The notes beneath the pieces are model-generated. The model saw only the letters and a list, made by a program, of their open reading frames with translations. It was not told where the DNA came from and made no database searches. Shown here in pieces: positions 1,363-4,622 of a stretch of 64,000 bases of DNA. The stretch covers positions 256,001 to 320,000 of the forward strand of contig JANZKC010000002.1 of the NCBI GenBank assembly GCA_025061115.1, given 5' to 3'. Origin of the DNA: Candidatus Culexmicrobium cathedralense. Its GTDB lineage: Archaea; Thermoproteota; Methanomethylicia; Culexarchaeales; Culexmicrobiaceae. The position numbers and the translations under genes were made by a program. Within the stretch, counting starts at the first letter, position 1; every line of letters begins with the position of its first letter.

Positions 1363-2574
1363 TTAGTTTGGGCCTTGATCACTAAAACATATTGCTGTGA
1401 TCTCTTTTAAGCTCTCAATGCTCTTTTCAAGCAGCCCATCAATATCCAATTTAGACTCTATCTCTAATACATCTTCAAGCTCAGCTCTTGTTACTGGTTT
1501 AGAAGGTCTAGCCCAGCAACCCTTAATTGGCGTGCAGCCAGAAGTAACTCTCATGCATGAAGCTTCGTAAGTTCCAATCCTTTTAGCTAGAGCTATGCTC
1601 TCATCCTTATCGAAACCTATTAGAGGCCTTAAAACAGGTAGCTCCGAAGCTTGATCTATAACTCTCAAGTTATCCAGAGTTTGAGAAGCCACTTGAGCTA
1701 AATTCTCACCAGTAACAATAGCTTTAGCACCAACTCTCTTAGCTAGCTCATTAGCAACTCTATACATCATCCTTCTACACAATACGCAAGTGTGCTTCAA
1801 AGCCGCTTTTCTAAAGGCAATTAAGTTATGCTCATGCCTGAAAACATAAACTGGCATTTCCTCTCCAACATGCCACTTCCTAAGTATTCTAACCACTTTA
1901 ATGAAGCGCCTCAAATCCGACTCATCACCTCCACGTGGAAAGTAAGCGAATAGAGGAATAACGCTGCATCCCCTCTTCATCATAAGCCATGAAGCAACTG
2001 GAGAATCTATGCCGCCAGAAATTAGGCATACAACCTTCCCCGCAGTTCCAAGAGGCAGTCCTCCTGGGCAAGGAACCCTCACATTATAAATATAGCACTC
2101 TTCATCTCTAACTTCAACATAAATTACCCTCTCAGGATTGTCCAAGCACACTTTAACTTTCGTTTCCTCCTTAACTATAGCTCCCAAGCGATTTTCCAAG
2201 TCTTTACTAGTAAATGAATGCGAGCCGGTCCTCCTAACCCTCACCGAAAATGATTTTGCATCTCCAATCAGCAAATGCGAAGCATCCCTAATGAACGCGC
2301 TTAAATCACTTAATTTAACAAACTTAAATGGCGCAGCAAAAACTAAGCCAAAAACTCGCTTGAGCAAATCTAGAGCCCCATTAACATCTTCAACTTCTAT
2401 GAGCAATCTAGACCACTTATGACGAACTCTACCTCTCAAGCCGATCTCCTTAAGCCCATCAATGATATTTTGAGCTAACTTCCTAACAAATCGCCTTCTC
2501 ACACTATTGGATTTTATAGCTATTTCACCATATGCAGCTAAAATTCCATCCCACTCAATGCTTGTTGACTGCAT
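1363..2574 (-). CDS. thiI: tRNA 4-thiouridine synthase ThiI (THUMP + PP-loop)
   Basis: YGEIAIKS, a THUMP domain, GGLPLGT, SGGIDSPVA, CxxCRR and GENLAQVASQTL. Confidence 0.93.
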   Translation of the reverse strand: MQSTSIEWDGILAAYGEIAIKSNSVRRRFVRKLAQNIIDGLKEIGLRGRVRHKWSRLLIEVEDVNGALDLLKRVFGLVFAAPFKFVKLSDLSAFIRDASHLLIGDAKSFSVRVRRTGSHSFTSKDLENRLGAIVKEETKVKVCLDNPERVIYVEVRDEECYIYNVRVPCPGGLPLGTAGKVVCLISGGIDSPVASWLMMKRGCSVIPLFAYFPRGGDESDLRRFIKVVRILRKWHVGEEMPVYVFRHEHNLIAFRKAALKHTCVLCRRMMYRVANELAKRVGAKAIVTGENLAQVASQTLDNLRVIDQASELPVLRPLIGFDKDESIALAKRIGTYEASCMRVTSGCTPIKGCWARPSKPVTRAELEDVLEIESKLDIDGLLEKSIESLKEITAICFSDQGPN

Positions 2575-2747
2575 TTCAATAAAGTTCAGAAAAACATGCT
2601 GATAAATCTCTCTATCTACAGCCTAAATTGCCGAAATCTCATAAATAAATCCAAATTGCAGCTGAAAGTTGAAGGGAATGATCCTACATGATCTTGAGCA
2701 GAATTTAAATGCAAGTAATTTAAGTTCGAGCATTAATATTGAATTAA

Positions 2748-2812
2748 TGGGCGATGATGCATCTTTAGCGGTTGCTGCCAATTGATGGCAGAACCCGGCA
2801 AGGCTGAGCCCA
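2748..2812 (+). ncRNA. C/D box guide sRNA, predicted to target 23S rRNA G1945 (E. coli numbering)
   Basis: Terminal stem TGGGC/GCCCA, box C ATGATGC, C'-like TTGATGG, box D CTGA (2804-2807), D guide ACCCGGCAAGG, and TTTAAG about 29 nt upstream. Confidence 0.75.
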
Positions 2813-2890
2813 AACCCCCGAAGCAAATAAATACCACACAAGCAAAAATACTAATGAAAGCCGGGGTAGCTCAGCCTGGGAGAGCGTCCG

Positions 2891-3527
2891 TGAAAACCCG
2901 TGCTAGGAGCCTTACCGCTCTCCACAATTTTTTATTAACTCAACAGTTTATGGAATTCTATGGTATAATGGTAGGTGATGGAACGCTCTACCATAAGCAT
3001 AATTGCAAATATTTTTTTCACAATATCCGAAGGATACAAAGATTATGCACAACATATTGCAGGGCTAGTGTATCTACTTATAGGCAGGTATCCACGGATC
3101 AAATATAGATCAAAGGCTTTTCAGAATAGAGTTTAAGTCAAAAAGACTCTTCAACGCATTCATAAATTTAGGCTTTCCTTTAGGCAAGAAAAGTTCCAAC
3201 ATTTCCATTCCCACAATAATTTTATCACATGATAATGTTAATTGGCTAATACGTGGAATATTTGATACTGACGGATCTATTTTCTTTAGTAAAAAGCCTG
3301 GCATAGTAAACTACCCTACCGTTGAAATTACTAGTAAAAGCTTTACCTTACTTAAACAGATCAAGAACGCTTTACGAGAAAAGTATGGCATTTTAGCGCA
3401 TATACGCAGATCCAAAGGTGTACATGAATTGGCAGTATATGGTTCGAAAGAAATAAGTAAGTGGGTAAAGTTTATAGGGAGCAGCCATAAAATTAAATCT
3501 CGGCTCCTAGCACGGGTTTTCGGCGAA
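2891..3527 (+). mobile_element. 637-nt BHB-type tRNA intron carrying a homing endonuclease gene
   Basis: BHB motif: central helix CGTC(2885-2888)/GGCG(3522-3525), bulges CG^T and AA^G, outer pairing AG/CT, and a 20-bp inner stem. Confidence 0.9.
2891..3527 (+). pseudogene. Two-motif LAGLIDADG homing endonuclease with two apparent +1 frameshifts
   Basis: Motif 1 FMEFYGIMVGDG (~2947-2982) and motif 2 LIRGIFDTDG (~3246-3275). The frame breaks at about the T7 run (3012-3018) and the T4 run (3118-3121). The last frame is stop-free from 3084 through the 3' splice site. Confidence 0.88.
2892..3521. repeat. Perfect 20-bp inverted repeat closing the intron (2892-2911 / 3502-3521)
   Basis: GAAAACCCGTGCTAGGAGCC is the exact reverse complement of GGCTCCTAGCACGGGTTTTC. 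Confidence 0.97.
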
Positions 3528-3551
3528 GCTGAAGACCGGATTGTCGAGGGT

Positions 3552-4622
3552 TCAAGTCCCTCCCCCGGCACTAAAATTATTAAGTAATTCCTTTACGAAC
3601 GAACCGAATTCCGTAACATCATATTCCCAATTTTTCAGCATGCTGGGATCCCATACTGGATGAAAAACCCAAGCAGTCCAACCAGCAACCCTATCCTCCA
3701 TGTAGGAGATTAAGGGCTCCCCAAAACAGCTTCTACTCCCCTTTAAAAACTCATAATCCACCTCTTCCTCATAACCCCACTCAGTTACAAAGACGGGATA
3801 ATGCTCAGCGACCCGCCCCCAATAATAATCCCATTCCTTCATAGGCCTACCAGGATAAACATGAACTGCATAAGCTATGTTTTCACCTGAAATGGGATCA
3901 CTTAAAACTCCTCTTAAATCGTAAGCCCAATCTACACCTCCGACAATTATTATAACATCCGCATCCTTACCCCTAATTAAACGGATAATCTCCTCGGCCA
4001 AAGGCTTCCAATCTTCCCACTCAATCCATGCTGGCTCATTAAAAATTTCATAAAGAACATTGCTCCTACCCCTAAATCGCTCTGCAACTCTACTCCAGAA
4101 ATTTACAGCTAAAGTGAAGTTTGGATCATAAATATTCTCCCCATTCCAAGGTTCCTCATACATCCAACTAAAGTTTTCAGGCGTTTCAGTCTCACCCGTA
4201 ATGGGATTTCCAATCGCATGCCAATCAATTATTACATAAATACCTCTCTCCTCACACCATTCAACCACCCTATCAAGGTACCTCTCAAGGTAATCGAAAT
4301 ACCTCTTCCAAAACACTGGGTGAACTGGCACTCTAACGACATTTACATTCCACATCTTAATCACATCGAAAAGCTCCTCACCAAACTTCCCCTCCCAATC
4401 TAGATAAGCTGGATCTGCTATCCCCACACCCCTCAAAATCACCTCCTTTCCACTAGCAAGAAGCTCATTTCCAACAATCTCCAATTTAGGCAAACCTTCA
4501 CGTTTAAACCTGAAAATGCAAAGCTGATTGAGAAAACAAATGCACAAGCCCATAATCAAGCAAGCAACAATGAAAACCCCAAATCTCGACGGCCAACCTC
4601 TAAAAGCCAGCGTTTTGACCAT
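3552..4622 (-). CDS. Secreted or membrane-anchored glycoside hydrolase family 5 (cellulase-like)
   Basis: IIDWH, YEIFNEP (acid/base Glu), AVHVY and VFVTEWG (nucleophile), with an N-terminal hydrophobic segment. ATG 4622 follows a GGAGGTG Shine-Dalgarno (SD). Confidence 0.88.
   Translation of the reverse strand: MVKTLAFRGWPSRFGVFIVACLIMGLCICFLNQLCIFRFKREGLPKLEIVGNELLASGKEVILRGVGIADPAYLDWEGKFGEELFDVIKMWNVNVVRVPVHPVFWKRYFDYLERYLDRVVEWCEERGIYVIIDWHAIGNPITGETETPENFSWMYEEPWNGENIYDPNFTLAVNFWSRVAERFRGRSNVLYEIFNEPAWIEWEDWKPLAEEIIRLIRGKDADVIIIVGGVDWAYDLRGVLSDPISGENIAYAVHVYPGRPMKEWDYYWGRVAEHYPVFVTEWGYEEEVDYEFLKGSRSCFGEPLISYMEDRVAGWTAWVFHPVWDPSMLKNWEYDVTEFGSFVKELLNNFSAGGGT

Follow-up and report, generated by a model that had tools for sequence, protein, structure and literature searches.

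In a 64,000-nt stretch of the genome of Candidatus Culexmicrobium cathedralense, a hydrothermal-vent archaeon (contig JANZKC010000002.1, positions 256,001 to 320,000; this whole stretch is hereafter called the window), a gene for tRNA-Phe(GAA) is split into two exons by a 637-nt intron of the bulge-helix-bulge (BHB) type, and most of that intron is taken up by a gene of the LAGLIDADG homing-endonuclease type. The tRNA gene and its splice structure are made up of the following features, all on the forward strand:

2825 to 2833, +, AAATAAATA, possible TATA box of archaeal type, some 27-35 nt before the 5' end of the tRNA (read from the sequence)
2860 to 2890, +, exon 1 of tRNA-Phe(GAA), 31 nt, tRNA positions 1-30 (ARAGORN; same as the 5' part of the G032 gene)
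2885 to 2888, +, 5' strand of the central BHB helix, CGTC, partner of 3522-3525 (4/4 pairs 100% paired in 10 loci)
2889 to 2891, +, 5' splice-site bulge CG^T, predicted cut at 2890/2891 (sequence; comparison with G032)
2891 to 3527, +, 637-nt BHB-type intron at tRNA position 30/31 (sequence; ARAGORN)
2892 to 2911, +, 5' arm of the 20-bp closing stem (sequence; fold; compensatory changes in relatives)
3502 to 3521, +, 3' arm of the closing stem, which also codes for the protein C-terminal LLARV (sequence; alignment)
3522 to 3525, +, 3' strand of the central BHB helix, GGCG (sequence; alignment of 10 loci)
3526 to 3528, +, 3' splice-site bulge AA^G, predicted cut at 3527/3528 (sequence; comparison with G032)
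3528 to 3570, +, exon 2 of tRNA-Phe(GAA), tRNA positions 31-73, no encoded CCA (ARAGORN; identical to G032)

The tRNA-Phe gene and its splice structure

When joined, the two exons give a 74-nt cloverleaf with the anticodon GAA and with A73 at position 3570. The cloverleaf has a 7-bp acceptor stem, the D-stem GCTC/GAGC, the T-stem GAGGG/CCCTC, and an anticodon arm consisting of the stem TCCGG/CCGGA and the loop CTGAAGA. Letter for letter, the joined exons are the intron-less tRNA-Phe gene (L002) of G032, a relative from the same class. Moreover, with long introns allowed, ARAGORN reported tRNA-Phe(gaa) i(33,637) at C2:258860-259571, which corresponds to 2860-3571 of the window. An earlier reading of the DNA, made from the letters alone (the sequence-only reading), had claimed that the exons form a full tRNA-Phe(GAA) and had placed the intron at the non-canonical position 30/31; the ARAGORN call and the identity to the G032 gene bear out the former, and the match of the exon boundaries to that intron-less gene bears out the latter. 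Its expectation that standard tRNA finders would miss the gene was also correct, as the split gene was detected neither by ARAGORN with default settings nor by the Rfam tRNA model at its gathering score. The label of the possible TATA box at 2825-2833 follows the usual geometry of archaeal promoters. Immediately upstream of the tRNA, window 2750-2809 gave a weak match to the C/D-box RNA sR22 (17.1 bits, E 1.3; gathering score 40), which is most likely due to chance.

The copy number of the gene was examined in the host genome, which measures 1.98 Mb in 25 contigs, with 99.99% completeness and 7.65% contamination. No second tRNA-Phe was present among the 47 ARAGORN calls made on this genome with introns of up to 3000 nt, and a BLAST search with the exons against the same genome returned, apart from the split locus, only a tRNA-Asn (82%). 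The split gene is the only phenylalanine tRNA gene found in the host genome, so that another tRNA-Phe, whose presence the sequence-only reading had left to be checked, was found by neither route. Likewise, in G403-G405 the split gene is the sole full tRNA-Phe match. A further call with a long intron, tRNA-Ser(aga) i(35,1895) at C4:125827-127817, was rejected as an ARAGORN false positive, having poor stems and lying inside a 516-aa open frame. A second long coding intron in the host genome was rejected with it, and the case is a caution for tRNA scans that allow long introns.

At the splice sites, the closing stem is complementary at 20/20 positions (2892-2911 with 3502-3521), and the central CGTC/GGCG helix comprises 4 bp, one of them a G-U pair. 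Two 3-nt bulges lie on opposite strands with this helix between them, and the helix is paired in 10/10 aligned loci of the intron family described below. The sequence-only reading had described a strict BHB motif. The helix, the bulges and the 20-bp stem held up, but "strict" did not: the exon-side helix measures only 2 bp (G2884-C3529 and A2883-T3530) and is followed by a G-G opposition, so the motif is of the relaxed HBh' form rather than the strict hBHBh' form. Relaxed BHB motifs are attributed to the heterotetrameric splicing endonuclease of Crenarchaeota, which has a broad specificity. A symmetric cut after the second base of each bulge is predicted to yield exactly a tRNA of the G032 type.

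Conservation of the structure was evaluated on an alignment of 10 loci. Pairing holds in 98.8% of cases for the 26 proposed pairs, as compared with 28-40% in controls whose 3' partners were shifted by 1-3 columns. Compensatory double changes occur at three pairs (nine cells of the alignment), e.g., from C-G to U-A in 5/10 loci, and in the covariation control the observed values were reached by 0-2 of 500 shuffles on four of five measures. The BHB-type fold at the tRNA-Phe locus is thus conserved and covarying beyond chance. In addition, the 712-nt precursor folds with z = -5.57 relative to shuffled sequences, and the long stem is part of its minimum-energy structure. The alignment also shows that the 3' stem arm of the window is one base shorter than in nine relatives.

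As for the splicing machinery, the host genome encodes two tRNA_int_endo (PF01974) paralogues, with 110.7 and 81.6 bits in open frames of 188 and 180 aa, together with an RtcB ligase (601 bits). The paralogue pair lies at C1:462959-463216 and C2:433801-434061. A group I or group II intron was rejected, since no Rfam intron family matched at the gathering score in the whole window or at E up to 10 within 2700-3700. With no ribozyme match, splicing must fall to host proteins, and the tRNA-Phe precursor would be spliced by the splicing endonuclease EndA together with RtcB.

The endonuclease gene and the intron family

The coding part of the locus consists of the following features, in which X2 to X4 stand for public metagenome contigs that are compared with the window further below:

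2950 to 3587, +, two-motif LAGLIDADG homing-endonuclease gene in three frames, running through exon 2 (alignment; homologues)
2953 to 2982, +, LAGLIDADG motif 1, EFYGIMVGDG (translation)
3012 to 3018, +, 7-T run with the first 1-nt frameshifting insertion (contigs X2/X3/X4; extra column relative to nine relatives)
3118 to 3121, +, 4-T run with the second 1-nt frameshifting insertion (contigs X2/X4, not X3; extra alignment column)
3246 to 3275, +, LAGLIDADG motif 2, LIRGIFDTDG, within the Pfam LAGLIDADG_3 match (translation; Pfam)

The open reading frame (ORF) of the window is distributed over three frames, namely frame A from the ATG at 2950, frame B from about 3012, and frame C from about 3118 to the TAA at 3585-3587, and two frameshifts follow from this arrangement. 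Both LAGLIDADG motifs that the sequence-only reading had claimed for the intron were located, each with its acidic residue (...MVGDG and ...FDTDG). Moreover, the 148-aa piece in frame C matches the Pfam profile LAGLIDADG_3 (PF14528) with E 7.2e-10 and 39.4 bits against a cut-off of 22.5. With the two 1-nt insertions, the window copy is unable to make the enzyme. Removal of both extra bases opens a frame of 211 codons, from the ATG at 2950 to the TAA at 3585-3587, and this repaired frame shares about 66% of 187-189 compared residues with intact homologues.

A protein search retrieved 13 relatives, six of them at 61-68% identity (five of 193-230 aa and one 154-aa fragment), and the N-termini of these six read like a translated tRNA exon followed by the stem. 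When the loci were inspected, 3/3 close genome loci (metagenome-assembled genomes titled Desulfurococcales archaeon) and 7/7 metagenome loci turned out to be tRNA-Phe(GAA) genes interrupted by an intron at this very site. The family therefore comprises 11 loci including the window, all of them in tRNA-Phe and all with one insertion site. In the 10 other loci the intron is 633-670 nt long in nine and 377 nt in one. The ORF is intact in L018, L020, L118 and L119 (the last with GGE for GDG), is interrupted by one in-frame stop in L019 and its duplicate L120, carries one frameshift in L121 and several in L122 and L123, and has suffered an internal deletion in L124, the locus with the 377-nt intron. 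All stages of ORF decay are present within the family.

The position of the stop codon ties the ORF to the tRNA. In nine relatives (9/10 aligned loci), the frame stays open past the last domain up to the TGA that T33-G34-A35 of exon 2 make up, so the ORF extends beyond the 3' splice site. The shorter arm of the window would shift the frame, and the stop would be met instead at the junction GAA|TGA of a circularised intron. We also observed that the introns of L020, L118 and L119 measure 654, 648 and 651 nt. Each length is divisible by 3 and no in-frame stop interrupts the intron, so that each of them, if circularised, would carry an endless frame; in L020 and L119, the circle junction A|TG would even provide an in-frame AUG. 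The intron of L018 (662 nt) falls outside this pattern, which may be due to chance.

The protein was further characterized through its homologues. Intact homologues match the Pfam profiles LAGLIDADG_3 and LAGLIDADG_2 (PF03161). An AlphaFold2 model of homologue P0002, which is 67% identical to the window piece, reached a mean predicted local distance difference test score of 86.2. Its best fold match in the PDB is the archaeal intron-encoded I-Tsp061I, with a template modelling (TM) score of 0.73, while I-DmoI gave 0.62-0.73; the Foldseek probability was 1.00 for I-Tsp061I, PI-PfuI and I-DmoI. The predicted fold is the two-domain alpha-beta-beta-alpha-beta-beta-alpha arrangement, as modelled for P0002 rather than for the window product. 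Intein endonucleases are also found among the fold matches of P0002, as are the LAGLIDADG maturases 2ab5 and 1p8k. No sequence match in the PDB was obtained at E up to 0.01 with a family profile of five sequences.

Outside the family, the nearest relatives share 30-36% identity and belong, by their record titles, mostly to DPANN archaea (L021-L097), where they lie against tRNA genes. The tRNA starts within -40 to +150 nt of the match end in 59/77 of the DPANN-type loci, and frame and tRNA overlap, counting all orientations, in 47/60. At tRNA-Arg(CCT), the frame runs 11-80 nt into the tRNA in 15/15 loci, and its stop is a TAG in the D-loop or a TAA in the anticodon loop. The DPANN homologues may act on tRNA genes as free-standing endonucleases; a check of five such loci revealed no flanking stems. 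Beside one DPANN endonuclease homologue, a second copy of the 3' portion of tRNA-Arg (31 nt, 87% identity) follows 50 nt downstream of the gene (L048:3637-3717); it may be a scar left by integration or belong to a tandem tRNA.

The lineage that carries the tRNA-Phe introns also has LAGLIDADG genes inside rRNA introns (L165, L168 and L170, in 23S/16S genes of G433, G450 and G404), and these enzymes are 25-30% identical to the tRNA-Phe enzyme. In a protein tree of 23 rows that included tRNA-Phe-intron, DPANN and rRNA-intron sequences, the rRNA-intron branches measured 2.7-4.3 changes per column and 11/20 inner branches were unsupported. The tree shows the rRNA-intron enzymes to be far more distant than the DPANN ones, and says nothing on the order of events. 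In viral contigs, a scan returned only seven distant relatives, at 23-28% identity.

Proposed homing, ORF decay and alternative histories

We then focused on the distribution of the intron. In the class of the host, the 3' junction occurs in 0/61 other genomes, which makes the host the one carrier in 62. Of the tRNA-Phe loci in 29 relatives, 26 are intron-less with the target intact and two have an 11-nt intron in the anticodon loop; the tRNA-Phe of G022 (L007, on G022:C2) has two short non-canonical introns, in the D-loop and the anticodon loop, and was missed by ARAGORN even with introns allowed. Elsewhere in the phylum, five of 400 sampled genomes have the 3' junction, all with short introns (21-43 nt) at the same site. 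Among G403 (the genome of L018) and its relatives, the site carries an intron in 24/61 genomes: five are endonuclease-type, 15 are short (21-84 nt), two could be assigned to neither type, and two further ones show an endonuclease-type 3' end at a contig edge. A survey of related genomes for alleles with and without the intron, as envisaged by the sequence-only reading, thus returned both. The short introns share one plan, namely one base, a hairpin, and GGCGA plus one variable base, from which it follows that the endonuclease gene occupies the loop of the hairpin.

Two patterns emerge from these surveys. First, there is presence/absence polymorphism at one site, with intact empty sites in relatives, as in a homing intron. 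Second, intact, stop-containing, frameshifted, deleted and ORF-less forms occur at the same site, as in a course of invasion, decay and loss, in which the change would have run from long to short. Based on all of these results, we estimate at about 85% the probability that the single tRNA-Phe(GAA) gene of the host is interrupted by a protein-spliced BHB intron with a LAGLIDADG gene in its apical loop.

In the mechanism that we propose, the pre-tRNA would refold so that C25-C28 of the exon pair with GGCG near the 3' end of the intron, while the 20-bp stem would join the intron ends. The two-paralogue (crenarchaeal-type) splicing endonuclease of the host would cut both 3-nt bulges, and RtcB would ligate the exons to a normal tRNA-Phe and probably circularise the intron. 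An intact enzyme would cut an intron-less tRNA-Phe gene around GAGAGCGYCCG|GCTGAAGACC, and repair from an intron-bearing copy would install the intron there. The site of cleavage is placed there by analogy, and we infer that the intron-less allele is cleaved by enzymes of this family and that the intron is mobile by homing. Since host enzymes would still splice the intron, it would persist after the endonuclease has decayed.

At least for this non-canonical tRNA intron, endonuclease-driven homing is a plausible origin. The sequence-only reading went further and proposed that homing of this kind could explain how such introns spread; the 11-locus family, the ORF decay, the patchiness and the short introns at the same site speak for that proposal, and either the short or the long forms may have come first. 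A wider reading along these lines is offered tentatively, as a possibility that falls short of being probable. It would make homing an entry route for non-canonical archaeal tRNA introns, the short 30/31 introns of tRNA-Phe would be ORF-less relics, and the enzyme would represent a hitherto unrecognised, tRNA-specialised LAGLIDADG clade, found in Thermoproteota inside tRNA-Phe and in DPANN against the ends of tRNA-Arg and tRNA-Thr. In addition, the enzyme might be translated from the unspliced pre-tRNA, because the stop is U33-G34-A35 of the anticodon loop in 9/10 loci.

A different history, somewhat unlikely in our view, is that the endonuclease is a late passenger in the loop of an older, short 30/31 hairpin intron, in which case the short forms would be the ancestors and the position would not have been made by homing. 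Short introns (21-84 nt) are indeed commoner than long ones (15/24 carriers in the G403 lineage and 5/400 phylum genomes), most of them have only the exon-dictated core in common with the long ones, and the nearest protein relatives, abutting DPANN tRNA genes, are a plausible free-standing source. However, the 377-nt intron of L124 is a deletion intermediate of an endonuclease-bearing intron, which indicates that long-to-short decay does occur. Loss of the ORF also fits the 43-nt intron of L130, which has 14/17 and 17/20 nt in common with the ends of the window intron, and the short intron of L132, which retains the CACCCGTGC stem. Moreover, the site is otherwise empty in the host class (61 genomes), so intron and gene most simply arrived together here.

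It is quite improbable that both frameshifts are sequencing or assembly errors in T-runs and that the window encodes an intact, active endonuclease. This was evaluated with public metagenome contigs of runs X1-X4, which were compared with the window over 2500-3900. Both extra bases do lie within T-runs (7 T and 4 T), and the X2 (depth 81) and X4 (depth 23) contigs have one base fewer at 3012 and one fewer at 3118, which gives the uninterrupted frame of 211 codons. Nevertheless, the X1 contig (5604 nt, depth 76) shows 0 differences from the window over 2500-3900, a match weakened by X1 being the possible source sample of the genome, with the same reads perhaps underlying both assemblies. In addition, the X3 contig has one base fewer at 3012 only and so retains one insertion of the two, an intermediate state in keeping with genuine mutation in steps within populations. 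The window copy is a pseudogene of very recent origin, with one extra base in each of two T-runs, and the contigs of near-identical strains in other samples point to decay that took place very recently, stepwise and within the population. A chimeric assembly, a danger that the sequence-only reading had named, is unlikely, as contigs of four runs from four studies cover parts of the intron, the whole being spanned only by X1, the possible source.

Another explanation, which we hold to be very improbable, is that the protein is kept not for homing but for a role in the host or the intron, e.g., as a maturase-like RNA chaperone of the refolded precursor. The full open frame of L119 despite a motif 1 that lacks the usual Asp (GGE), the ORF kept open among copies only about 65% identical, and the presence of the two LAGLIDADG maturases among the fold matches would suit such a role. 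But the ORF is broken in loci where the only detectable tRNA-Phe has the intron (window, L019, L121-L124), and splice-compatible short versions occur without any ORF in at least 15 genomes; as broken and ORF-less forms are tolerated, the protein is dispensable for tRNA-Phe production. Finally, the idea that the split locus is a dead tRNA-Phe whose working copy went unassembled or is masked by other introns deserves hardly any credence: although the assembly is in 25 contigs with 7.65% contamination and ARAGORN overlooks tRNAs with unusual introns such as the two of G022, the genome is 99.99% complete with no other exon-like match, the exons are free of mutation relative to the G032 gene, the same layout with a covarying splice structure recurs in 10 other loci, and in G403-G405, too, no full tRNA-Phe match besides the split gene occurs.

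Returning to the endonuclease-bearing, protein-spliced and mobile intron that we favor, several observations weigh against it. The window copy of the endonuclease is, by its frameshifts, non-functional. An uninterrupted frame occurs in the X2/X4 contigs and in L018, L020, L118 and L119, but not in the window. In X2-X4, base 2981 is A and not G, so that motif 1 ends in Glu instead of Gly in the very haplotypes with fewer or no frameshifts. Together with the GGE in place of GDG in L119, this means that an open frame need not denote an active enzyme. The window protein is only 61-68% identical to its relatives, so the sampled loci appear to include no recent donor. No intron-less allele of the same strain was recovered: the three contigs in which 2890 is followed directly by 3528 deviate from the window at 3-5 of the 43 exon-2 positions and come from other organisms. 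The patchy distribution could also reflect vertical descent with losses. With an exon-side helix of 2 bp, cleavage would need a broad-specificity endonuclease, which is suggested here by the two paralogues. In addition, the stem arms double as coding sequence, which may add to their conservation.

Relation to known introns and significance

The nearest known systems are the archaeal rRNA BHB introns of I-DmoI and I-Tsp061I, which are likewise protein-spliced and closed by a stem, contain a monomeric two-motif LAGLIDADG gene, and encode enzymes matched by the predicted fold of P0002. I-DmoI comes from the 23S rRNA intron of Desulfurococcus mobilis and I-Tsp061I from an rRNA intron of Thermoproteus. 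In contrast to these, the host gene is here a tRNA and not an rRNA gene, the intron lies in the anticodon stem with its BHB motif formed partly by D-stem and anticodon-stem nucleotides, and the ORF ends, in 9/10 aligned loci, at a TGA that belongs to the anticodon loop itself. An archaeal endonuclease-bearing BHB intron is a known kind of element; its location inside a tRNA gene appears to be new.

Short non-canonical tRNA introns and their "intron transposition" have been described in Thermoproteales (Fujishima et al. 2010, as cited in the accessible portions of PMC10714607 and of a 2026 Asgard preprint). These crenarchaeal introns resemble the present one in their non-canonical position, relaxed BHB motif and broad-specificity splicing endonuclease, and introns of 21-84 nt occur at exactly this site in other genomes. 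They are short and non-coding, whereas the window intron brings its own DNA endonuclease gene. Group I introns are known from bacterial and organellar tRNA genes, some with homing endonucleases, according to the available parts of PMC3984707 and PMC6125680. Such introns are mobile, likewise interrupt the anticodon arm and can hold an endonuclease gene; the present intron differs in having no ribozyme match and in consisting of ORF over about 600 of its 637 nt. Phage T4 SegB is a free-standing homing endonuclease in a tRNA cluster. The DPANN relatives, lying directly against tRNA genes, are of a similar type, and unlike the gene in the window they stand outside the tRNA, with whole tRNAs reported beside them by ARAGORN.

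The sequence-only reading knew of no endonuclease-bearing BHB intron in an archaeal tRNA, and our literature searches agree: none was found in openly readable full texts, with subscription papers and supplements outside the scope, nor in the accessible portions of PMC3082918 and PMC8450103. As far as their available text goes, PMC4496867 places such endonuclease genes in rRNA introns and PMC6125680 in archaeal BHB introns at large, with no tRNA case in either, and the words "homing" and "LAGLIDADG" appear nowhere in the corresponding parts of the tRNA-intron reviews PMC4090602 and PMC4033280. The route by which tRNA introns arrive is still open according to the portions available of the 2026 Asgard preprint (10.64898/2026.10.13.758758).

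How archaeal tRNA genes acquire introns, above all at non-canonical positions, is an open question, for which this element offers a testable mechanism. It has a defined target, the anticodon arm of tRNA-Phe, and comes with natural intact-ORF versions (of the L018, L020 and L118 types), natural empty sites and natural decay products down to hairpin introns of 21 nt. For annotation, the case implies that pipelines can call an essential tRNA missing when it is split by a coding intron of 0.4-0.7 kb. Moreover, thermostable LAGLIDADG enzymes of new specificity are of practical interest as meganuclease scaffolds.

Outside the window, a single open frame of about 2100 aa at G000:C1:492621-496100 contains four LAGLIDADG_3 matches, which within a large host protein are probably intein endonucleases.

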